Assembly (NCBI GenBank): GCA_965242725.1 | Contig: CBDESZ010000017.1 | Coordinates: 1-64,000 of the forward strand | Origin: Alkalispirochaeta sp. | GTDB taxonomy: Bacteria; Spirochaetota; Spirochaetia; DSM-27196; Alkalispirochaetaceae | Direction: 5' to 3' | Length of the DNA: 64,000 bases | Part shown: positions 1 through 24,334 of the stretch, piece after piece | Layout of the letters: every line of letters starts with the position of its first letter | Position numbering within the stretch: the stretch's first letter is position 1 | The notes under the pieces: model-generated | What the model was told of the DNA's origin: nothing | The model's database searches: none | What the model saw: the letters and a program-made list of their open reading frames with translations, nothing else | Made by a program: the position numbers and the translations under genes

Positions 1-923
1 TAAAGCTTTTAATATCGGTGAAGAGAATTGTCAGGTCCCGCTTGGTACCCTCCAGTCGAATTTCACGTTCCCGATACGCCTTTGCCGCAACGTCGCGGGC
101 GACAAACTTCTTGAATATACCCATCAGGTTATCGATGGTATTTGAAAGGGAGTTGAAGGCCACACCGAGGTAGGTGACGTCGTCGTTGGGTGCACCGTCC
201 ATATTCATCAATTCAAGCGTCTGGTCCGCCTGCATCCGCATGATGTTGTCGGTGATGACCCGGACAAACCGCAGAATGAATCGGAGAATGAGGATTCCCA
301 CCACGACAAAGATGAATGAAATCCCGACGATGATAAGACTCACCTGCTGAAAGATGCGCTGTGAGTCGGCGTAGAACTCTCCCAGCTCTTCCGCCCGTAT
401 CTGATAGATTTCCCATGAATCATTGTACTTATAGACGCCGAAATAATCGTACCCGGCATATTCAAAATTGAGAGTACCCTCTTCGGTACCATCGGAATTA
501 CGGGCGCGAACCATCTTCTCGAGAGCGTCATCGTCGGGAAACCGCTCCCGTGGCTCCAGCCGGGACGCGAGGAAGAACACCGTCCCGTCGGGACGTACTC
601 CGATGGAGAGGGACCCGCTCACCCCGGTGGTTTCGCGCGGCGGCGGTTTCGATATTGCGGACCGTCGCCTCCATATCGGGGTTGAAATCGAAAATTTCAT
701 GCTGGTTTCGCGCAAAGACGTGCATTTCTTTCAGGTCTTTCACCAGCAGCTGGTTGAGCAAGCGCATTTGCTCACCCCGGTTCAACATGAGGTTGATATA
801 GTTTGTCGTAAAGTTGGAAATGAGGAGAAAGACGGTGAAGATCGTGACGATCTTCAATACGAGAGGCGTGACTCTGACGCCGTTGATCTTCTGTCCGAAG
901 ATCTTTGAAAGCCAGTCTGCCAT
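1..923 (-). CDS. Membrane-anchored class III adenylate/guanylate cyclase (partial, runs off window start; one apparent frameshift at ~614-616)
   Basis: N-terminal TM in ORF 528..923. Removing one C from the CCC at 614-616 gives a continuous frame through a second TM, a HAMP-like segment and ...EGTKRDLTILFTDIKSF, the first class III cyclase motif, open to position 1. Confidence 0.8.
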
Positions 924-12841: not shown

Positions 12842-13073
12842 GTATTTTATAGCTTGCTAAGTAATTTTCCAGTGGTATTTTCGGCGTCGAAAACGTAAAA
12901 ACACTCATGAGTAATTCATAATTATATATATATTATGTATTTACGGGAGATCGAGTTCGTTTTTTTGACAAATATAATTCAGTAACTGGAACAATTTTAA
13001 TTATGATACGAATTTACCGCGCTCTAATATCAACGGCCGTTGCCGATCCCGCGGTTGTGTGGTAATAACAGTC

Positions 13074-13670
13074 ATGCGACTGGCGTGTCTTGATCTTGAA
13101 GGTGTACTGGTACCGGAAATCTGGCAAAATGTTGCCCGCCGTACGGGCATCGAGGAATTACAACTCACCACACGGGATATTCCCGATTACCACAAACTGA
13201 TGAAATATCGCCTTGATATTCTGGACCGGCACGGGATTACCCTCCCGACGATCCAGGATGTGATAGCCGGAATGACTCCGCTGTCGGGGGCCCTTGAATT
13301 TGTGAACCGCGTGCGGGAGACGATGCAGTTTGTGCTCCTCTCAGATACCTTTGAAGAGTTTGCGGCACCCCTGATGCGGCAGCTTGGATACCCGACGCTT
13401 TTCTGCAACTCCCTGGAGGTAGATGAGGGAAGCGGCCGTATCGCCGGATACCGCCTGCGTCAGGAGAACGGCAAGTATCACGCCGTACGCGCATTTCGCG
13501 CCATCGGATTTGAGGTGTACGCCGCGGGCGATTCATACAACGACCTGGCGATGATCAGGGAGGCGGAGAAAGGCGCTTTTTTCACCCCGCCCGCATCGAT
13601 CGTCGACGAAAACCCGGACGTACCGGTTTGCCGTACCTACGATGAACTCTTTGAGTTCCTTTCACGGTGA
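13074..13670 (+). CDS. thrH: Phosphoserine phosphatase / homoserine phosphotransferase (HAD family)
   Basis: ACLDLEGVLVPEIW, TTRDIPDY, LSDTF, AAGDSYND. Confidence 0.9.
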   Translation: MRLACLDLEGVLVPEIWQNVARRTGIEELQLTTRDIPDYHKLMKYRLDILDRHGITLPTIQDVIAGMTPLSGALEFVNRVRETMQFVLLSDTFEEFAAPLMRQLGYPTLFCNSLEVDEGSGRIAGYRLRQENGKYHAVRAFRAIGFEVYAAGDSYNDLAMIREAEKGAFFTPPASIVDENPDVPVCRTYDELFEFLSR

Positions 13671-13707: not shown

Positions 13708-14499
13708 CTAGTCCGCGGTATCCCCATCCGGTGCAGGCTCACCAAGGTTCCTTATTTGCAGGGCGAGACGATAGTAGTCGACGGCGCCTTCACTCCGCAG
13801 CTGATGCTGAAAAATCGTTCTCCCGTTGCCCGGTGCTTCGGCGAGGGAACGGTTGTGATGAATCGGGGTCAAAATGAGTTTTTTCCCGAGCCGGTCCGAC
13901 AGCTCATCAAGGAGACGCTGGGAGGTTGAAGCTCCCCGGTCGTAAAAGGTCGGAATCAGGCCCCGCACCTCAAGCCCCGGATTGTAGACGCGACGTATTT
14001 TTTCAACGAGCTCGACAATTTCTATCATCCCTTCAGTGGCGAGAAAATGGGCCTGCATCGGGACGTACGCTTCCGTCGCCGCAACGAGGGCGGCTACCGT
14101 CAGGAGCTGAGTCGTCGGCGGGGTGTCAAAGACGACATAGTCAAAGGTGTCCATAACGCCCGAGAGGTGACGCCGCATAAGCAGCCGTGCGTCCTTGTTG
14201 TTTGCATATTTTCTCTCAAAGACCGCCAGCTTCCGACTCGCCGGCAGCACGCTCAATCGGGGCGTCACCGTTGACTGCAGGGCGTCGGCCGCGGGGATCT
14301 TCCCTTCAAGGACGTGACTCACGTCGTAGGTGACGCGGGAGAGGGACAGACCGAGAGACATCGTTGCATGCGCCTGGGGGTCCGTATCGATAACGAGCAC
14401 CCGGTATTTCATGTGGGCAAGGGCGGCGGCAACGTTCACCGTGGTCGTCGTCTTACCGCACCCTCCCTTTCGGTTGGTGAATACAAGGCGCCGGCTCAT
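13708..14499 (-). CDS. ParA/Soj-family ATPase (orphan)
   Basis: Start re-called at ATG 14499; NRKGGCGKTTT deviant Walker A, DTDPQAHAT, FDTPP, LAEAP. Confidence 0.9.
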   Translation of the reverse strand: MSRRLVFTNRKGGCGKTTTTVNVAAALAHMKYRVLVIDTDPQAHATMSLGLSLSRVTYDVSHVLEGKIPAADALQSTVTPRLSVLPASRKLAVFERKYANNKDARLLMRRHLSGVMDTFDYVVFDTPPTTQLLTVAALVAATEAYVPMQAHFLATEGMIEIVELVEKIRRVYNPGLEVRGLIPTFYDRGASTSQRLLDELSDRLGKKLILTPIHHNRSLAEAPGNGRTIFQHQLRSEGAVDYYRLALQIRNLGEPAPDGDTAD

Positions 14500-16584
14500 A
14501 CGGCGGCTCCGTGGAGATTTCGTCAAGAATATGGCGGGTAATTGCGTACAAAGGGGGAACTCCTTCCGATTTTTCCAATGGCGCTGCGAGGTTTGAGTGA
14601 GTCTGAAGGGGTAAATCGGAAACATAATAGAAGAACCGGAAGGCCACATCCCTGCTTATCACTCCGAGCTGACCGGATTCAACGATTCCGCGATAGTAGT
14701 GAGTACCTTCCATCTCTATTCCGATAACATCCCATATTTGTCGGTAGAAATTGAGCATTTGCCGGTTTTGCAGCAGTGTGCCGTCGACGGTCAGAAGGGG
14801 ACCCCGATGAACATCACCTGCGGGATAGCGTCGCATGAGCCGGTCCGCCCAGGTATCACCATTGTCATCGGAACCGGCCGCCTCAGGAAGGGGCTGAAAG
14901 AAATCACTGTGCTGCTCGACAAAGGCCGTCGGGGCGAGAATATCACCGCGTTTCCCGACCAGAGCTCCGGCCTTCCCGAGGAAATTGACGCTCTTTACAT
15001 TCTCCCCGAAGAGCATAAGCAGATTGCGGATCACATATTCCGCCTGCTCCCCGAATGCGTAATCGATATTGACTATATAGTCCCGGCCACCGCCGTTGCG
15101 GGGAAAGGGACGGATCCCGGGATCTATGGGCCGGGTAATTTGAGAAAGGTCGATGAGCTGCACCTGGATCCCGGTGCTTGCGGTATGGTTCAGGCGGTAT
15201 TGGCCCGCCTCCCGTGCGCTCCTTGTAAATGCCGTCAGCTCCTCCGGACGGGCGACGAAGTAGTCCGGCAGCGCCGCATACACCATGTCCTGCTCATCGT
15301 TCCACTCCGAACTTCCGACGGGATGCCCCGTCCGGCGTATCCACTGGACCACCTCATTCCGGGACTCGCCGACCCAGGGATTGAGACAGTTTGTCACCGA
15401 GTGGGTATTGCTGCTGACGATGTGTATGTTCCGGTCTTCCGGAAGGTCGCTGGGATCGAATCCGGTAACCTCCCGGGACATCCCCGCCACCGCGGAGGTC
15501 CACAGCTCGTTCCGCCTGGCGTTGTAGTTGCGTTCCCTTCGGCGGACGTCTATTGAAAACATCTCCCGGTGGCGGGTGATTTCGGATACCCGCCGCGCCG
15601 TTTCATCGCCCCAGACCTCCAGCAGGTGATCGACTTCCCGGGAGCTGAAGGCGAGGGTGTTCAGAAAGGCTCTCACCTCTTCCAGAGGCGCGGAGTCCGT
15701 CCCGGAAGACTCCTCAGGGCGTCGCATGGTACGTACAAAGTGATCCAACCGATGGAGAGCGCCGTCCCGGACCATCCGCTCCCGGATCTTCCTCGCCTCG
15801 ACGGCGTAGAGACAGAGACAGGTGACCAGATCGATGAGATCCGAGTCGCCGCTCCGCAACAGCACGAGGTTTTTACCCGGCAGAACCTCCCATATGTCCC
15901 GCCGTCGCGCCACGGTGGGGACGGACTGAAAGAAGAGATCCCCCTCGTCGAAGGGCTCCGCCAGCTCGTCGACAAGAAGGAACGCAAACGTTGCAGTCAC
16001 GTTGGCGGGCAACCGGCGCACGGCATACTGAAGGGCGGGAAAATCGATCTTGCGGACTTCCCCTACTCCCGGATGGAGCGCCGGCTGGAGCTGCCGATAG
16101 AGCGGCATGAGACGGGGAACACTGATCTGCCCCTCGCCGGCCTCGTGAATAAGCTGCGTCTTGAAGCGCTCAAAGGCGGCAAAGATGCCCTGATTGTTCC
16201 GCAGGGTGGACCCGAATCCCTGGGCGAAGGTGGGCGACTCCTGGAGGAGAGAGCGAAAACGTTCGCCCGAAAGGGCGTAGCAGACGCAGTCGGTTCGGGC
16301 GCGGACACTGAAAATACGGGGCTCCTGAAAAACCGCCTCCCACTCCCCGAAAAAATGGTTTGCCCGGATGACGGTAACGATCTCTTCCGGGGTCTTCCGC
16401 GGATCAAATACCTCCACACCTCCCGACTCGACAAGGTAGACCGACTGGTCGTTGTCATGCCGCCGGAAGACCACTTCACCCTGTCGAAAAAGCCGCTTTT
16501 CAGCGTGCTGCGCCAGCTCGTCTCGCTGGTATGGCGGAGAAAACGGAAAGGATGTATCCGTTGCAACAGGGAAGCGACGTCCAT
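14453..16584 (-). CDS. cNMP-binding domain fused to a DUF6909-like / nucleoside-phosphorylase-fold domain (one apparent 1-nt deletion near 16536)
   Basis: N-terminus MDVASLLQRIHPFRFL (frame of ORF 16063..16584) joins PYQRDELAQHAE (frame of ORF 14453..16903); cNMP cassette FGEWEAVFQEPR; C-terminal HIVSSNTHSV, GKAGAL..RGDI, IGIEMEG, YYVSDLP. Confidence 0.75.
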
Positions 16585-17579
16585 CAGCCCATCGTATCAC
16601 GGAGGGGTGGAAGTGAAAAACTGCGCTGCCACGGCGGCGGAATAGAAAGCTGTGTCGTGATTCGGGAGAGGATATTCCAGCCGTCGATATAGCTGAATCC
16701 CTCGCACAGATCGAGAAGGCTATGCAGGTCGGGAACGGACGGGTCGAAGTTGAACCTGCAGATCGGATGCTCCACGAGACCGCGAATTTGCGCCCCCGAG
16801 AGGCCCCTGCCGGCGAGAAATGCCCCGAAGGAGCTCGCCTCCACGCCGAGACGTGATCCGTCACGATCGAGGAGGTAGTCGCGGCTGTCCAGAAGCTGTT
16901 CAAAGGGACTCCGTGACATGTGTACCGCCCGTGCGATGGGCATACCGCGACGCAGGAGGCTTCCCTTCACGAGTTCAGCCTGCATGCGCGCCGCCAGTTC
17001 GAAGAAATAATTATATCCCATGGATGTACGGAAGGTCATGACGGCGATGTCCGTCCCGGCGTTGTTCTTGTGGAGCAGAGCGGGTATGTCGTAATTGACG
17101 ATCCACAGGTCGCCGTATTTCTTGACGACCTGACCGGCGATCCGGACGACGGCGCGTTCCTCGACCCACAGCGCAAAAAGCTCCTCCGGCTGCCATCCAA
17201 AGCGGCGAAGCGCGTCAAATGCACCGATAACCTTCTGCCCGTCAAAGGATTCCCCGTAAAAATCGGAGAACTGCCGGCGCATTTCCGGGGAAAATACGGA
17301 CCCGCCGTGGACGGCAAAGTACAGGCGGACGGCGTAGTGATGCTCCACTACCTGCCGTCTGATCATATCTTCACCTGGAATATTGGCCATATAGACCAGC
17401 TCGATATCGGCGTTGTCCTGCCGGCAGTCCCGAATCAGTTTAAGAATTCTGCTCTCAACGGCGACGCCGTTTGACTCGGGACGCAGGTACATGAAGACAT
17501 CGAGAATTTCCGGCCGGGGATCAGGGCCGCCATAGGGTACGAGTATCTTGGGCTTATGTGCCTTTTTTACCTCCGCCAC
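16584..17579 (-). CDS. Hypothetical protein, divergent nucleoside-diphosphate-kinase-like fold
   Basis: Probable GTG start at 17579 overlapping the pheT end; VFMYLRPE (cf. NDK T-hhh-IKPD) and AVHMSRSPFE (cf. N-x-x-HGSD). Confidence 0.55.
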   Translation of the reverse strand: MAEVKKAHKPKILVPYGGPDPRPEILDVFMYLRPESNGVAVESRILKLIRDCRQDNADIELVYMANIPGEDMIRRQVVEHHYAVRLYFAVHGGSVFSPEMRRQFSDFYGESFDGQKVIGAFDALRRFGWQPEELFALWVEERAVVRIAGQVVKKYGDLWIVNYDIPALLHKNNAGTDIAVMTFRTSMGYNYFFELAARMQAELVKGSLLRRGMPIARAVHMSRSPFEQLLDSRDYLLDRDGSRLGVEASSFGAFLAGRGLSGAQIRGLVEHPICRFNFDPSVPDLHSLLDLCEGFSYIDGWNILSRITTQLSIPPPWQRSFSLPPLRDTMG

Positions 17580-19339
17580 GGTGTTCCAACAACCTTTCCA
17601 GGTCCAGTTCTCCGGCGGTGCACGGAACCTGAATACCCCACCCCTCCAACACACGGGGGTGGACTTCACCGAACACGCCAAAGACCGTCTGTGGGTCACT
17701 TTTTTTACCACCCGACGGGGCGACGATTTCCGCGGCCCTGCCCGGTATGAAGCGGGAGTCCCGAACTTCCCTCAGTTCATACTCCCGTCCCAGGTAAAAA
17801 AGTATAGCAGATATGTGGGAATTTATCATGTTGAAGCCCGCCTCACGGTCGGCACTGAGAAATCCCATGGTGGTCATAGTCGCCGTTCCGGTCACGTCCC
17901 GTTCATCCCGGAGAGCGGTCTTTCCCACCTCAAAAATGTGGTGCGGATAGACCGCATTGCCGCTCACCGCCTCCGACGACAGAAGGGAGGGAAGGATTGA
18001 CGGTCTGACAAACTCATAATTCTCACTCATGGGGTTGGCGATGCGTACCGCCTGTGCATACGCGTTTTCCCGTTCATCTTCGTCATACATGAGGTCTATG
18101 TATTCACGGCCCGATCCCAGGTAGTTGAAGATCATTTCCTGAAAGCCGAGACCGACCATCGTTGATTTGACACGTCGGGTGAACTCTTCCACAGGGGTCA
18201 GACGACCCACGGTAAAGTCACGGGGCATCTCGGGGGTGAAGCTTTCCATGCTCCGTCCGATCATGACGTCTTCGACGATGTCGACGGCGTGGAGAAAGTC
18301 ATTTCGATATTCCGGCACCCGAATGAGAACACGGGTGTCACCTGAGGCGTCCGTTTCCGTTGCGGCGATTCCCATGCGGTGCAGTGCCTGTATAACCTCA
18401 TCAGTCGTGAGAGATTCACCGAGGAGTGCGTTGATTTTCGCTCATGGCGGCGGATTGGGGCTTCTGGAAGTAGTATGGAACGGTCAGGTTCTTTCCGTAC
18501 GGTGTGTCATAGGGGTATTTCCACCTGTACCGGCTCCACGGTGTAACCCATATCGGTTACGTCGCAGGCGACGATGGAGGCGGCGTGGAGCAGGGATTCG
18601 AGATCACTGCCGGTAAGTTCGATGAAAAGAGCGGTATCCCCTTCCTGAACGGCACCGATGGAGGCGCTGTTGATGACGGGGGGAAAACTCAGCACATCAC
18701 CCTCGTCGTCGGTAAGAATCGGAAAGAGGGGCATATCCGCCACGATATGGCCGTATTCCTGCCCCCTTGGGATGCTCCTTGATGATCTCCCGCATCGAAA
18801 GCTCTCGCTCAAACTGCAGCGGAACGAATCGAGTCTCATCGGGATCCACCGCCTTGTAGTGCACGGGGTAGGTGATGAGATCCGAGCGGTAGACTCCCAT
18901 GGCGATGGAACGGCGTTTGCGACCGTAGTTCCAGGTGAGCTTCTCCTGCGTCTGAATGAGGTCCTTGAGCATCGCCTCCGAAACGGGGCGTCCCGTCATG
19001 ACGAAGCCGACGACCCAGGGCCTGATCTTCTGTACCGACCGGTCCACGACGACCCGACGCTCCCCGTGTTCTCTCCGGACGGAGGCGTCGGAAAAGAAGG
19101 GATACCTGGGGGCGTCGCCGCCGCGGTATATTCTCAGTTGTCGCGCCAGCCCGGCGGTGGACCACAGATCGGGTCGGTTTGTGTCATTGAGCTCCACCTT
19201 CATGATCCCGTCGGCGTCGGCGGGTTCGTCGAGCTCCGCCTTTGCGGCGGGGAAAGAGCGCTTCAAGCTGTTCATCTTTTATCGAACGGATGCCCATGGC
19301 GTCGAGCAGCACGTCGCGGAAAACTTCAATTTTCGGCAT
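17554..19339 (-). CDS. pheT: Phenylalanine-tRNA ligase beta subunit, archaeal/spirochete short type (four apparent +1 homopolymer errors)
   Basis: MPKIEV start at 19339; ELNDTNRPDLWS, QEKL..NYGRKR, LSFPPVINS, YRNDFLHAVDIVEDV, NPMSENY, FGEVHP distributed over successive frames. Confidence 0.9.
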
Positions 19340-19350
19340 AACTTGTCTCC

Positions 19351-20932
19351 TTACCTTCTCCCTAAGCGATGCGACGGCGAAAGGCGCACGTTTTCCAGAT
19401 CCGGGCTGAAAAGTTCCCGCAGATCATTCAGTCCCAGATGCATGAGAGCCATACGGTCGATTCCGAGGCCCCACGCCAGGACGGGTACGTCCACTCCCAT
19501 CGGTTTGGTGACTTCCGGCCGGAATATGCCCGACCCGCCCAGCTCAAACCATCCGAGTTTGGGGTGCTTGATGTGGACTTCAACGGACGGCTCGGTAAAG
19601 GGAAAGTATCCTGGAACGTACCGTACATCCGTTGCGCCGGCGAGCTCAACGGCAAACATTTCCAGGAGGCCGAGAAGGTTTTTTCAGATTCACCTCTTCG
19701 CCGAGAACGATTCCTTCGGTCTGGTAAAAGTCGGAAAGGTGGGTGGCATCGACCTGGTCATATCGGAAACCACCGCAGAATTCCGAAGTATTTTTCCGGG
19801 AATCTTCGCCTTGTGCAGCGTTTTGGCGGACATGACCGTTCCCTGACTGCGCAGAATGAGCCGGCGGAGTGAAATCGCGGTCAAAGCGGTAGCCCCAGCC
19901 GCGGCTGCCCGTTTCCCACCCGTCTTCATGGGTACCGGCGATACGGGAGAGGTAGGGTTCTTCGATCTCCCTGGCGTGGCTGGGATCCTTGACGTAGTAC
20001 ACGTCATGAATGTCCCTGGCTGAGTGGAACTGGGGCATAAAGAGGGCGTCGGAGTTCCAGAACTCCGTCTCCACCATCGGTCCGTCAAATTCCTCGAATC
20101 CCAGGGACACAAGCTTGTCCTTTACCGAGTCGAGATACTCGCAATAGGGGTTTCTCCGTCCCGGAATGAGCCGGCTTGTAGGCGCGTTGACGCCGTACTC
20201 CCGAAAGCTCCGGCCACGCCAGCTTCCGTCACGCAGCATTTCCGGCGTGAGCCGGCCGACCTCGTCTCCGCTCATCCCCGCCCTGGCGAGGGCGTCTTTT
20301 ACCTCCACGCCGAGGGGGTTGATTCTGTAGAAGACGACTTCCCGTTCTACGATCCGAAACATCGCCGACGATGCTCCCCGTTTCTTTGCGTTTGCCGCGA
20401 CAACGTCCCGCTCTTCAGGGGTAAGCCGGGCGTCCACCAGATCACCATCGGCGGCACTATTGAGGAGTCGGTTGAGTACCTGTTCGCTTTCGGGAAGGGC
20501 CTCGGCACCCTGGGAACCATCAGCCGGAAAGGAGACCTTTTTGTCCCCGTCCATCGTGAGGATACCCTTCTTGGACAATTGACCGTATGACGATCCGACG
20601 TCTTTCTTTTCAAGACCCGTCGCGTCGGCGAGTTCCGGAAGGGTCATCGGCCCGCGATCCGTAACGGCTCGTATTATGCGTTCAACGGGCGTTCCCTTCT
20701 CGGCAAACTCGGCGCCCAGCTCCGTTCTTTCGTAAAAGACGTGTTCTTCACGACGCGTCTCGTCGAGATACGATTTTGCGACAAGCCAGCTGAGGGCTTG
20801 ATTGCACTGACCCAGTTTCAGTCCAAGGTCGCGCTCCATTTGGGCGGCGCCAAACTCCGCCGTCCCGTCGTAATGCAGGAGCGTCTTTATTTCAAGGGGA
20901 TGAAGGCTTTTTAGTGTTGCTTCCGAAACCAT
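19351..20932 (-). CDS. pheS: Phenylalanine-tRNA ligase alpha subunit, long archaeal/eukaryote type (four apparent +1 homopolymer errors)
   Basis: FWNSDALFMPQFHSARDIHD, LILRSQGT, FRYDQVDATHLSDFYQTEG, PGYFPFTEPSVE, AWGLGIDR distributed over successive frames. Confidence 0.92.
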
Positions 20933-21007
20933 GGCCGGCATTATGCCAACCTTTTCCAGTATCCACAAGAACGGGCGGCGGCGTCCCGCCGAACCGAATG
21001 CGGCCGC

Positions 21008-24000
21008 TTAGAGAAGCCGTTTCCGGATCCGCTCCGCCCGTTCTTTCAGTTGTTCCGCAACGTCACCGTCCGGCAGATGTGAACTCACCTGCCCCAGATA
21101 ATCAAAGGTCTCGGCGATTTGTGCACGGTCTATCGGTGAGGACCTCCGTTGTGAAGGCGGCCGGCCGGAATCCTCCGGGGGACGCCGTTTTTCGACTTTT
21201 TTCCGAAGGGTATCCCTGCCGCTGAGTCGGGAAAATACACCCGCGAGTTTCAGACGTTCATCGCTGTGGCGGTATTCCCGGTCCCTGTCCGGAGGAAGGT
21301 TCCTGGCGAGGCCCATGAGGTACCCGAACAACCTCGCCTGGCGACCAAACGGACGGTCATCCTGCGATTGAGGCCCCTTTGTCGGACCAAGCTGGGCGCG
21401 CACCTTTTCTATCATGTCCTTGAGTTTCCGCCGTAACGACGGATCCGGCGTATGTTCTTCTTCGCTCCGGGGAGCCTCCCGTGCTTCGACGGGCCGGGAC
21501 GGCTGCTTCTCCTCACCTTCCCGGGCCGGCCGTTCCGGTGGCGGCGCCTCCTGAGGCACGGTTTCGGGAGGTTGTGTTTCCGGCGGTTGTGGCGGCCGCT
21601 CCATGGGGAAGGGCGACTCTTCCTCCTCCTGCAGCGCCTCCAGGCCCGAAGGGAGTTCTTCCTCCTCCTGCAGCGCCTCCAGGCCCGAAGGGAGTTCTTC
21701 CTCCTCCCGTGGCGTTTCGACGGGTACGTCTTCCTCCGGCGGCAACTCATCGTCCGGGGGAATCTGTGCCGGCGGCGGCATTTCGTCGTGCGGCGGCAAT
21801 TCTTCTTCCACCGACGGTTCCTCCGCAACCGGTTCTTCCCGGGGGAGATATTGCTCATCCGGTATTTCTTCTTCGGGGACTCCTTCCTCGGACTCCCGTT
21901 CCTCGTCGGAGTGCTCGTCGGCGAGGCGTTCTTCGCCGGGGTATACTTCATCCGAGGGGCTTGCGTCCTCGGGACTATCGGGTTCATCCGGTTCTTCTTC
22001 CATGTCCGGCGGCAGTACGGCGTCGGCATCGAACGACGGGTCCGGTTCCGTCACATACTCCGGTTCGGCATCCGCGGCAGGCTCCTGCGGATGCGGCGGT
22101 GCATCAGAGTAAAACGGCGCGGATACGGAGTGCGGTTCGGGTTGAAAATCGGGTCGAGGCTCGTACTGCGGCGCGGGCTGAGGTTCACTCCCGGATTCCG
22201 GTTCCGGGCGTGGTGCAGACCGCGGTTGAGGCTTCTTCTGCGGGGCGGGCGGTGATTGAAACGCCGGCGTCGGAGGTTCGGGCTGGGGACGGGGCGGCGA
22301 ATATGGCTGTTGTGCCGGCGCTTCGGGCGGAGCTTCAGGGACCCGCTCCCGTTCAGGGGGTGATTGACCGTCCGGTTTCGCCTCGTCGGAAAGGAAGGGA
22401 AAGGGCATTTCCTCGTCCTCTTCGATGAGGTTGCGGAAGTCTTCCTCATCTTCCTGACGGGGGTACGGCGCCTCGTCTTCCGGTGTGATCGGCACATTTG
22501 CGGGCGAGGTGCTCCCGTCCCGACCGGTATCGCCGCCGCCGGCGGTAGATTGGACCGGTGCGGCCGGTGCATCACGGGCTCCCGATTCCTGAGAATCCCC
22601 CGTCGCCGGGGCTTCCCTCTCTTCAACGGGGGAGTCCAGACCCGGCTCCCCTTCGTCGGGAGACTCCGTCGAGATATCTTCGCCGAAACTCAGAATCGGA
22701 ATGGATTCCTCGTCAAAGTCGCCCGTTTCCTCCTGATCCATCGCGTCCCGTCTCGTCTCCCGGGCGCCTTCCTTCGCCAATCGACCGAGGAGATCGAGAT
22801 TATCGTGCCATCGCTCACTGTTTTCAGCCTCGAAATCCTGGACCATCTGCTCATAGAGCTCGAGACTTTCGTTCAGTTTATCCAGGTCCTCCGCGCTTCC
22901 GCGGTTCCCCTGCAAAGATACAAGTTCATCCGCCGCACGGAGTGCTTTGTCCCGATCACCAAGGATGTGATAGACCTCCGCCCGGGACGAAAGGACACGA
23001 TAATCATCGGGGCTGATTCCGGACGCTTCATTCAGCGCGTCGTCCGCCTCTTCCCGGCGTCCCAGCTCCGCGAGTGCTTCCGCCTTTCTCAAAAATCCGG
23101 AGACATCTTCGGGGTTGGACTGAATGGATCTATCCGCATAGGTCAGCGCTTCTTCATGAAGTCCGTCACGTCGAAGAATGTCCGAAAGATCGGGCAGGTA
23201 ACTCTGGTCCGCAGGGTTCTGTTCGGCATATCGACGCAGCGTTTCCTCGCCCTGATCCTTCTGTCCGCTTCGATATTGGGACAGTCCCAGTTCGCGCAGT
23301 GCGTCGACGTCGTATGGATCGTCTTTCACGACTTCCGCCCAGAGTGCGGTCGCCTTGTCGTGCATCTGCGACCGCCCGTATACCCTGGCAAGACTTTTGC
23401 GCAGGCGGGTGTTGTCGGGGTCGCGCTCGATCAGCTGCTGCAGAATACGCCGACTTTCCGCGGGGTCAGCGATCTGTTCCGCCAGCTGGCCGAGGTTTCC
23501 CGCCGCCCGGCCGTATCCCGGCGACCGCTGCAACGCTTCCTGAAAATGGCGAATCGCCTCGTCGGTCTTGCCCTGCCGGGCGAGAACAGTACCGAGATTG
23601 TTTCTCGCGGTATGGTTTTCCGGTTCCAGCTCCAGGAGCTCATTGTAGATTTCCTGGGCCTCGTCCAGGGAATCAAGTTTGTCCAGGACGATTCCCAGAT
23701 TATTCAATGCGTCGCCCCAGCCTGGCCGGGACCTCCGCACGACTTCATAACTGTCCCGTGCCTCCGGCAGACGCCCCATCGCCTGATAGGTGTTGCCCTT
23801 GTTGTAGTGGAGCGTCGGATGGTTGCGATCCCGTTGAATTCCCCGTTCAAACACCTCAAGGGCTTCGTCATGGCGGCCCTGTGTATCAAAGAGGGTTCCC
23901 AGATTGTTGTAGGCGATGGTCAGGTCCGGATCCCGGGCAATCGCCCGCTGATAGGCGTCGATCGCCTCGGGATAATTGCCCAGATCCTTGTGGATGTTGC

Positions 24001-24334
24001 CAAGGTTATAGAGGACCTCTCCGTTTTCCCCGGAGTAGCGCAATGCCTCTTTTATCGTCTCCAGGGCACGCTCGGTATCTCCCGTCTGGCGATAGATGAC
24101 GGCGAGATTGTTCAAGGCCTCGTGGTTGCGTGGCTCGAGTGCGACGGCCTGCTTGTATGACGCAATTGCCGGGGCATATCGCTTTTGACGACCGTATATA
24201 GTTCCCAGCAGGACGTGAGCCGCCGTCAGATCGGGATAGTCCTCCAGTAACGCAGATGTGAGCCTCTCGGCCACTTCATAATCGTTGACTCTGAAGGCGT
24301 TGACGGCGCGGTCAAGTCTTTCCTGATGTTTCAT
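21008..24334 (-). CDS. TPR-repeat protein with a long acidic/Pro-rich disordered region
   Basis: Many TPRs (ALNNLA, YNLGN, YNNLG, RNNLG) in the first ~480 aa, an E/P-rich middle and a helical C-terminal domain. Confidence 0.88.
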   Translation of the reverse strand: MKHQERLDRAVNAFRVNDYEVAERLTSALLEDYPDLTAAHVLLGTIYGRQKRYAPAIASYKQAVALEPRNHEALNNLAVIYRQTGDTERALETIKEALRYSGENGEVLYNLGNIHKDLGNYPEAIDAYQRAIARDPDLTIAYNNLGTLFDTQGRHDEALEVFERGIQRDRNHPTLHYNKGNTYQAMGRLPEARDSYEVVRRSRPGWGDALNNLGIVLDKLDSLDEAQEIYNELLELEPENHTARNNLGTVLARQGKTDEAIRHFQEALQRSPGYGRAAGNLGQLAEQIADPAESRRILQQLIERDPDNTRLRKSLARVYGRSQMHDKATALWAEVVKDDPYDVDALRELGLSQYRSGQKDQGEETLRRYAEQNPADQSYLPDLSDILRRDGLHEEALTYADRSIQSNPEDVSGFLRKAEALAELGRREEADDALNEASGISPDDYRVLSSRAEVYHILGDRDKALRAADELVSLQGNRGSAEDLDKLNESLELYEQMVQDFEAENSERWHDNLDLLGRLAKEGARETRRDAMDQEETGDFDEESIPILSFGEDISTESPDEGEPGLDSPVEEREAPATGDSQESGARDAPAAPVQSTAGGGDTGRDGSTSPANVPITPEDEAPYPRQEDEEDFRNLIEEDEEMPFPFLSDEAKPDGQSPPERERVPEAPPEAPAQQPYSPPRPQPEPPTPAFQSPPAPQKKPQPRSAPRPEPESGSEPQPAPQYEPRPDFQPEPHSVSAPFYSDAPPHPQEPAADAEPEYVTEPDPSFDADAVLPPDMEEEPDEPDSPEDASPSDEVYPGEERLADEHSDEERESEEGVPEEEIPDEQYLPREEPVAEEPSVEEELPPHDEMPPPAQIPPDDELPPEEDVPVETPREEEELPSGLEALQEEEELPSGLEALQEEEESPFPMERPPQPPETQPPETVPQEAPPPERPAREGEEKQPSRPVEAREAPRSEEEHTPDPSLRRKLKDMIEKVRAQLGPTKGPQSQDDRPFGRQARLFGYLMGLARNLPPDRDREYRHSDERLKLAGVFSRLSGRDTLRKKVEKRRPPEDSGRPPSQRRSSPIDRAQIAETFDYLGQVSSHLPDGDVAEQLKERAERIRKRLL
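21618..21707. repeat. In-frame 39-bp tandem repeat (2 perfect copies + 12 bp) encoding EEEELPSGLEALQ
   Basis: TCTTCCTCCTCCTGCAGCGCCTCCAGGCCCGAAGGGAGT at 21618-21656 and 21657-21695. Confidence 0.95.

Follow-up and report, generated by a model that had tools for sequence, protein, structure and literature searches.

Conserved gene order behind pheST in Alkalispirochaeta sp.: an NDK-fold protein, a cNMP-binding DUF6909 protein and a family-specific ParA that probably do not form one module

In nucleoside diphosphate kinase (NDK), the nucleotide is bound by residues that include Arg88, Thr94, Arg105 and Asn115, and the loss of the Arg88 and Thr94 equivalents has been tied to the inactive human Nme5 (PMC7024210, in the part of the article available to us). 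For human NDPK-C, the accessible portion of one study places bound cAMP near the Tyr and the catalytic His, the Kpn loop contributing less to its binding (PMC11431768). Domains of the nucleoside phosphorylase type I (NP-I) fold are immune ATP nucleosidases in the cyclic-oligonucleotide-based antiphage signaling system (CBASS) and in Detocs, according to the available sections of a preprint (bioRxiv 10.1101/2023.01.24.525353), and R189 and R218 are given as DNA-binding residues of Soj in the accessible text of another (bioRxiv 10.1101/2025.07.02.662783). Here we describe a locus of Alkalispirochaeta sp. (assembly GCA_965242725.1) in which genes related to these three groups of proteins follow pheS and pheT, the genes of phenylalanyl-tRNA synthetase (PheRS). 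The window, i.e., the whole stretch of DNA analysed, comprises the initial 64 kb of contig C17 (CBDESZ010000017.1) from a genome of 4.3 Mb, and the closest named homologues of its proteins come from Alkalispirochaeta and other free-living spirochetes. The genes in question are as follows.

Gene 1, 16584..17579, minus strand: a 331-aa NDK-fold protein with an insertion of ~90 residues and a C-terminal extension
Gene 2, 14496..16584, minus strand: a cyclic nucleotide (cNMP)-binding domain, a middle alpha/beta part and an NP-I fold domain; DUF6909
Gene 3 (parA), 13708..14499, minus strand: an orphan Soj-like ParA ATPase with the motifs KGGCGKT, DTDPQ and DTPP

The original prediction had taken these genes for one undescribed module, a nucleotide-converting complex under cyclic-nucleotide control, co-expressed with PheRS and possibly positioned by ParA. 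According to our analysis, the proposed module probably does not exist. It is fairly probable that the locus represents a conserved chromosomal order with three separately evolving genes and not one obligate module; in this reading, two of the genes encode so far unstudied variants of known enzyme folds and the third a ParA specific to one family.

The presence of the genes was surveyed in 70 genomes of the order with at least 85% completeness; as the genomes are related to each other and in part incomplete, the counts are tallies and not a test. Gene 1 was found in 69 of the 70 genomes; DUF6909 turned up in 52 of them and this ParA clade in 17. All genomes with the ParA clade belong to the family of the window (f1), and the clade was not found in any of the 53 genomes of other families. 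There were 18 genomes with gene 1 and no DUF6909 match; genome G020 has kept gene 1 and ParA in the absence of gene 2, and in G150 gene 2 stands beside a LiaF-like gene, with no match to gene 1. In four genomes that lack gene 2, the locus can be followed without a break from gene 1 to thrH, which means that the local absence of gene 2 is real. The expected co-conservation of the three genes is not borne out by this survey, since each of them is also found without the others. At the level of the phylum, the gene 1 family was present in 23 of 301 genomes and DUF6909 in 6, with both in three, and 10 gene 1 loci outside the order had no shared neighbours.

Several observations weigh against the view that the genes evolve separately. 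All three occur together in 16 of the 17 genomes of the family; in each of the 27 fetched loci with both genes, which come from several families, genes 1 and 2 lie within about 2 kb of each other; they are neighbours in two genomes of family f10 that lack this pheT there; and gene 2 is almost never found without gene 1 in the order, a weak point given that gene 1 is near-universal. The adjacency in 27 of 27 loci also favours a reading in which genes 1 and 2 form a functional pair for cNMP-gated purine nucleotide turnover, gene 1 making or removing the substrate of the nucleosidase, gene 1 existing also alone and ParA having joined later in one family. The nucleotide-handling folds of both proteins agree with such a pair, as does the fact that the NDPK-C cAMP site, in the portion of the study cited above (PMC11431768), uses the Tyr and His that gene 1 has kept and relies less on the Kpn loop. 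Nevertheless, we regard a functional pair as rather unlikely. The 18 genomes with gene 1 and no DUF6909 match speak against it, as do G150 and genome G199, where genes 1 and 2 lie on different contigs, and the thrH gene and a TPR gene, both housekeeping neighbours, are as syntenic as the pair itself.

The surroundings of the three genes are consistent with conserved chromosomal order. The minus-strand block runs from the TPR gene through pheS, pheT, gene 1 and gene 2 to parA, and thrH meets it head-on; pheS-pheT and thrH are listed below.

pheS-pheT, 17554..20968, minus strand: several frameshifts in the window that are absent from the run contigs described below
thrH, 13059..13670, plus strand: phosphoserine phosphatase/homoserine phosphotransferase, convergent, the conserved right border of the block

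The order pheS, pheT, gene 1 and, further on, gene 2 is conserved across the order, and the distance from pheT to gene 1 was at most 170 nt in 30 of the 32 loci measured. The contact between genes 1 and 2 is a different matter. With heuristic starts, the gap between them is -1 nt here, while among 27 loci it was -11 nt in one, 5–261 nt in 13 and more than 500 nt in 13; that one is the only other locus of the 27 with an overlap. In 12 of the 27 loci (for example L013, 11770-12357, with 11 others alike), genes 1 and 2 have a DUF1707/LiaF-like gene on the opposite strand between them, and one locus carries a 2-kb insert. The genome of the window has a DUF1707/LiaF-like homologue elsewhere (C5:26406-26981). 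Since the LiaF-like gene also occupies the same place in three genomes without gene 2, and stands beside gene 2 in the genome with no gene 1 match, an older arrangement is suggested in which the pheST operon ended with gene 1, and gene 2 opened a new transcription unit. Where the DUF1707/LiaF-like gene separates them, gene 2 would probably have its own promoter, and loss of that gene from the locus may explain why genes 1 and 2 touch here. A promoter and terminator scan found 7 promoter-like sites, compared with 3.8 +/- 1.8 in shuffled sequences, none of them diagnostic.

The claim of three genes directly behind pheT holds in that the three minus-strand genes are real; the 1-nt contact of genes 1 and 2 is local and not general in the relatives. 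The junctions at the two ends of gene 1 were read correctly in the original prediction. Gene 1 starts with the GTG at 17579, 26 nt inside the end of pheT (17554), at the same residue as its homologues, and the TGATG stop/start at 16586-16582 gives a 1-nt overlap with gene 2, whose first 18 residues from the ATG at 16584 agree with the N-termini of gene 2 homologues.

The PheT (beta subunit) of the relatives is short, about 570-590 aa. As a separate observation, the PheT of family f10 is long (807 aa) and only about 23% identical to that of the window, so a different PheRS type lies near gene 1 in that family (L017 858-4011, G038). In many relatives a CheB-CheR-PAS fusion and a histidine kinase-receiver cassette lie between parA or gene 2 and thrH (L013 4290-8905, L014, L027, L030, L031); this cassette is missing in the window. 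Upstream of pheS, the window encodes at 21008-24334 a TPR protein of 1108 aa with a long acidic and proline-rich low-complexity middle, and this gene is conserved at that position.

The junction of gene 2 and parA proved to be affected by the quality of the assembly. In the window gene 2 is frameshifted near 16527-16549, a feature that the original prediction did not mention: its first 18 residues lie in a different frame from the remainder, and the window's gene 2 frame extends to 14453. The essential genes pheS and pheT are broken likewise. For comparison we took one sample that may have given rise to this assembly and used the contigs of three of its runs, with a depth of only 4-5; the contigs of a fourth run stop at both indel places of gene 2 and are uninformative there. 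Relative to the window, the contigs of the three runs have one additional base behind 16527 and one behind 14508, and they differ from it at 9 single-base places in pheS and pheT. When the two bases are added, gene 2 becomes a single frame of 696 aa that overlaps the start of parA by 4 nt. In the relatives this overlap is 4 nt in 11 of 15 loci and 1 nt in two; the remaining two, with 70-76 nt, probably have mis-estimated starts. Judging from these comparisons, the frameshift of gene 2 is probably an assembly error, and the overlap of about 47 nt proposed before is most likely an artefact of the assembly, the real one being 4 nt. In total, at least 11 single-base indels in 8.5 kb (17554-20968, 14508, 16527) distinguish the assembly from the run contigs; with such a density, any other "pseudogene" or overlap in this genome should be viewed with distrust.

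The third gene does encode a ParA with the deviant Walker A motif, as had been noted; the motif reads KGGCGKT. The motifs KGG[CV]GKT, D.DPQ and DTPP are intact in all 17 aligned members of the clade, with an AAA_31 match of 151 bits. The genome's own Soj is followed by a ParB-like open reading frame on contig C16, and no ParB lies beside gene 3. At the columns that match the arginines of this Soj, which we take to be those in its motifs DSRT and PRN, the clade does not have Arg, although some members have an Arg one place earlier. Because the two DNA-binding Arg columns of Soj are not kept, classical nucleoid-based positioning of a cargo by this ParA appears doubtful, though nearby basic residues could substitute for these arginines. 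ParA would be a family-specific addition that is translationally coupled to gene 2. Independently, in family f13 gene 1 is directly followed by a different ParA clade with no gene 2 (L047 8858-10566 in G070, L056 7644-9367 in G269, L180); it matches the ParA of the window at E 1e-13 to 1e-15 and represents a second, independent ParA at the same site.

These data bear on the three-protein complex, gated by cNMP, that would be expressed together with PheRS and placed on the nucleoid by ParA. The lack of intergenic space in this genome, the gene 2/ParA overlap of 1-4 nt in 13 of 15 loci and the joint presence of all three genes in nearly the whole family would fit it. We nevertheless consider it very unlikely, in view of the confinement of the ParA clade to one family of the order, the G020 genome with gene 1 and ParA and without gene 2, the Soj arginine columns that the clade has not kept and the antisense gene that splits the block in 12 of 27 loci. 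The unequal presence of the genes and a gene 1 without the phosphate-binding loop (see below) likewise speak against the ParA-positioned complex.

Pfam, NCBIfam and PADLOC contain no family that matches gene 1. When 1.84 billion proteins were searched with a profile, 216 matched, the distant ones being proteins of ~335 aa and giant protist proteins with 5-8 matching stretches; PF00334 was matched at E up to 0.05, mostly below the cut-off, by 21 of the 54 scanned. Profile comparison connected the gene 1 clade over its whole length with the remote ~335-aa clade (hhalign, 99.9%, E 1e-34) and the remote clade with canonical NDK (95%, E 3.5e-8), the reversed controls of this chain remaining below 1%. 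When the AlphaFold model of gene 1 (pLDDT 94.4) was compared with 48,161 chains, the top 10 matches all seemed to have the NDK fold (Z 8.5-6.8; the next had 6.3); three of them are titled NDK, and the ciliary and RP2 chains among them we take to belong to the same fold. The best match was an NDK (Z 8.5, root-mean-square deviation (rmsd) 4.4, 152 residues aligned), and the S. aureus NDK gave Z 8.1, rmsd 2.6 and 124 aligned. A feature-atlas match of 0.89 (NDK in 22% of members) was used as a lead only. Against the NDK assignment, direct sequence and profile comparison of gene 1 with canonical NDK was not significant, the structural match is moderate (Z 8.5, near the middling level of the tool) and a Foldseek search with the model reached E 0.047 at best, with nothing below 0.001. 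Since the Z values are moderate, the assignment rests on the agreement of the profile chain with the structure search, which together show, for the predicted structure, an alpha/beta sandwich of the NDK type.

The residues of gene 1 were mapped to NDK by alignment through the remote clade, and their conservation was counted over 97 members of the gene 1 clade. The catalytic site is retained: H220 (His118) in 95 of 97, S222 (Ser120) in 92 with T in the other 5, and D231 (Glu129) in all. The NDK-like character with a catalytic His is thereby confirmed, His220 standing at the catalytic position. R33, a conservative change in the Lys12 column, and Y82 (Tyr52) are invariant (97/97), and H81 is kept. 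The part of the site that holds the nucleotide has changed: Arg88, Thr94, Arg105 and Asn115 (Kpn loop, phosphate and ribose ligands) are not kept, the Asn115 column is Arg in 91 of 97 members, and the Kpn-like motif was found in none of the 97, compared with 17 of 27 remote-clade members. This genome encodes a normal NDK elsewhere; a canonical NDK also occurs in all 41 relatives and in 9 of the 10 gene 1 carriers that are more distant, and we infer that the housekeeping role does not belong to gene 1.

Strict conservation of the His-Ser-Asp triad, together with two invariant arginines, suggests phospho-His chemistry on another substrate, and we lean towards this activity; mere binding of a ligand appears less likely, though still quite possible. 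Gene 1 as a second working NDK is unlikely. In this case the arginines R33 and R217 would replace the lost contacts of the Kpn loop, which agrees with the Lys12-to-Arg and Asn115-to-Arg changes and with the conserved His, Ser and acidic partner, and the activity would be compatible with the favoured reading of the locus; on the other hand, the relatives already have a canonical NDK, and the lost equivalents of Arg88 and Thr94 mark the inactive Nme5 in the available part of PMC7024210. Distinctly unlikely, by analogy with the Tyr/His half of the site at which NDPK-C binds cAMP in the accessible part of that study (PMC11431768) and which gene 1 has kept, is a role as a His-dependent cNMP phosphodiesterase or phosphotransferase that would form with gene 2 a purine turnover pathway controlled by a second messenger, with a DNA-independent positioning ATPase added in one family.

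In a quick tree of the gene 1 family, the remote clade split off with support 100, and the gene 1 clade did not form one branch. The giant eukaryotic proteins (P0328, P0335, P0342, P0388, P0311; 1382-2595 aa) carry 5-8 repeats related to gene 1, most of which keep the His motif HAS[AD][SG] and a Kpn-like GS[ILV]R; one is from Trypanosoma theileri (2516 aa) and one from Jenningsia, and two have C-terminal EF-hands. A literature search on atypical NDK and spirochetes and on trypanosome multi-NDK proteins, with subscription papers not covered, returned nothing on these proteins.

In gene 2, Pfam recognises a cNMP-binding domain at residues 16-101 (PF00027, 64 bits) and DUF6909 at 143-675 (PF21850, 397 bits, model positions 3-533 of 535). 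The structure model (pLDDT 92.1) matches known folds over residues 1-119 and about 340-680, which flank an alpha/beta middle part (120-340). Residues 1-119 (P0002) are structurally equivalent to cNMP domains, with Z up to 16.3, and the region of about 340-680 has the NP-I fold, with MTA/SAH nucleosidase (MTAN) as a match at Z 18.9 (rmsd 2.7, 206 aligned; Foldseek E 3e-8), followed by uridine phosphorylase (18.6), purine nucleoside phosphorylase (PNP, 18.3) and AMP nucleosidase (Amn, 17.1). The motifs EMEG (E609-M-E-G), S641-D642 and GKAG are invariant in all 117 homologues; [ED]ME is presumably the ribose motif and S-D the base-activating one. Both elements named in the original prediction, the cNMP cassette and a phosphorylase-type EME, are thus real, the first as a PF00027 domain and the second as EMEG within the NP-I fold.

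In the profile alignment GKAG, GDI, EMEG and SDLP correspond to GHCG, GDY, DMES and SDKP of Amn (78.7%, E 1.7e-5; reversed control 0.3%), and the Amn-led profile was the better match to DUF6909 of the two tried. The NCBIfam AMP-nucleosidase models matched none of 44 DUF6909 members, and Amn gave Z 17.1 against 18.9 for MTAN; the DUF6909 profile was not significant against the single sequences of E. coli Amn, DeoD and Mtn, and sequence searches of the PDB with DUF6909 alone gave nothing credible. The leading NP-I subfamilies are tied within 2 Z units and so do not single out a substrate for gene 2. A feature-atlas match of 0.76 for DUF6909 (PNP in 17% of members) served as a lead only. In the cNMP cassette G65 is kept in 117, E66 in 116 and R75 in 115 of the 117 homologues; two positions after this Arg, 100 of the 117 have F or Y instead of the small residues of PKA-type domains, and with such bulky residues the ligand is uncertain. 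We infer that gene 2 is a purine N-glycosidase, most likely hydrolytic, that is probably tuned by a cyclic nucleotide.

DUF6909 has 45 invariant columns across 44 aligned members. It is mostly a stand-alone protein of ~560 aa, represented by at least 8000 clusters from Bacteroidota, Desulfobacterota and other groups; its fusion to a cNMP domain is a lineage variant of the spirochetes. Genus g17 (G040:C5, G348:C83, G350:C53) has a shorter gene 2 of about 657 aa, with a DUF6909 match that lacks model positions of about 120-150. Among 80 loci of stand-alone DUF6909, the commonest neighbours were GH3 genes (26) and M23 peptidase genes (24), and none of the 80 had a gene 1-like or NDK neighbour. 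The GH3-family acyl-adenylating gene lies upstream on the same strand in these 26 related loci (L155 4452-5951 and 25 other Bacteroidota). GH3 enzymes release AMP, and this may possibly hint at the substrate of DUF6909. No paper on DUF6909 was found in a literature search that did not cover subscription papers, and searches for cNMP-nucleosidase fusions and for Alkalispirochaeta combinations gave nothing on these proteins.

The original prediction had also pointed to a class III cyclase about 13 kb away.

HAMP-type class III cyclase, 2..923, minus strand: N-terminal part only, cut by the contig end

The gene is present, yet its specific link to the block did not stand. Of 40 relatives, 26 gave an orthologue, often at a distance of 1-27 kb from the block, and the gene is syntenic in part of the order; PF00211 was confirmed in the orthologues of 3 genomes, those with an orthologue among 5 searched. 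An orthologue is present in G024, which is without gene 2, and was not found in four single-contig genomes that hold gene 2. This genome has 7 other PF00211 matches, and each of 5 relatives has 11-20; cNMP-domain matches number 20 in this genome. The cyclase was rejected as a specific partner of gene 2, being one of 8-20 per genome and with a synteny that is not tied to gene 2.

The same observations bear on whether gene 2 could be an anti-phage nucleosidase triggered by a cyclic nucleotide, with a Pycsar-type sensor and a Cap17-type effector. Its cNMP domain matches Pycsar effector models (E 2e-6), and the immune NP-I nucleosidases described in the available sections of the preprint (bioRxiv 10.1101/2023.01.24.525353) offer a precedent. 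We consider this extremely unlikely: the PADLOC matches are limited to the cNMP domain, with none for stand-alone DUF6909; 52 of 70 genomes carry the gene as a single copy at one fixed housekeeping locus, which is no patchy distribution; no defence genes were recognised in the loci examined, the neighbours in Bacteroidota being GH3, M23 and sugar genes; and there is no dedicated adjacent cyclase, the nearby one having not been found in the four single-contig genomes and being present in G024.

Returning to the conserved chromosomal order with separately evolving genes, the following scenario appears plausible. Gene 1 would be a near-universal gene of the order, usually the last of the pheST operon, whose product is probably still phosphorylated on His220 without the usual grip on a nucleoside diphosphate; most likely it passes phosphate to, or takes it from, a protein or a different small substrate, and less likely it is a nucleotide-binding pseudo-enzyme. 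Gene 2 would be a dispensable DUF6909 enzyme that, given its fold and motifs, may cut the N-glycosidic bond of a purine nucleoside or nucleotide in the manner of AMP nucleosidase or MTA nucleosidase, and the cNMP-binding domain added in this spirochete lineage suggests that cAMP or cGMP probably tunes it.

The two proteins of genes 1 and 2 are good targets individually. DUF6909 is a large family, widespread in Bacteroidota, and its placement in NP-I makes an activity directly testable; the spirochete cNMP-DUF6909 fusion, if our reading is true, would be a nucleoside-cleaving enzyme under cyclic-nucleotide control. The gene 1 family is unnamed, has the NDK fold, escapes Pfam and occurs in almost every genome of the order alongside a normal NDK, and its activity would reveal what an NDK does after loss of the Kpn loop.

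Overall, the comparison with known systems is as follows. Gene 3 shares the deviant Walker A, A' and B motifs with Soj/ParA and with orphan cargo ParAs such as PldP of Corynebacterium, and like the latter it has no adjacent ParB; it differs in lacking the conserved DNA-binding Arg columns and in its restriction to one family. The closest known systems to gene 1 are the NDK family (PF00334; PDB 1xqi of Pyrobaculum, 3q83 of S. aureus), including the group II domains of Nme5, Nme7 and RP2 (8wzb, 6u42, 3bh6). With NDK it shares the ferredoxin-like core and strand order, the His of the last strand, followed by Ser (+2) and an acidic residue (+11), the basic residue after strand 1 and the HY motif; it differs in its length (331 aa, compared with about 150 aa), in the insertion of about 90 residues after the HY helix, in the lack of the Kpn-like motif and of a Pfam match, and in the changes of Asn115 to Arg and Glu129 to Asp. 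To the unnamed ~335-aa "large NDK-like" family it is a whole-length homologue, and that clade has kept K, N and E and the Kpn-like loop (17 of 27 with the full motif), whereas the spirochete clades have lost the loop. Gene 2 shares the fold of residues of about 340-680 with the NP-I superfamily (PF01048; MTA/SAH nucleosidase 6aym, PNP 1odi, uridine phosphorylase 6k5g, AMP nucleosidase 7uwq/1t8s/1ybf) at Z 17-19, with only 11-16% identity, the extra middle part of 120-340 and the N-terminal cNMP domain. Stand-alone DUF6909 of Bacteroidota and Desulfobacterota is without the cNMP domain, about 560 aa long and set among other neighbours, whereas over the whole DUF6909 domain gene 2 is alike (397 bits).

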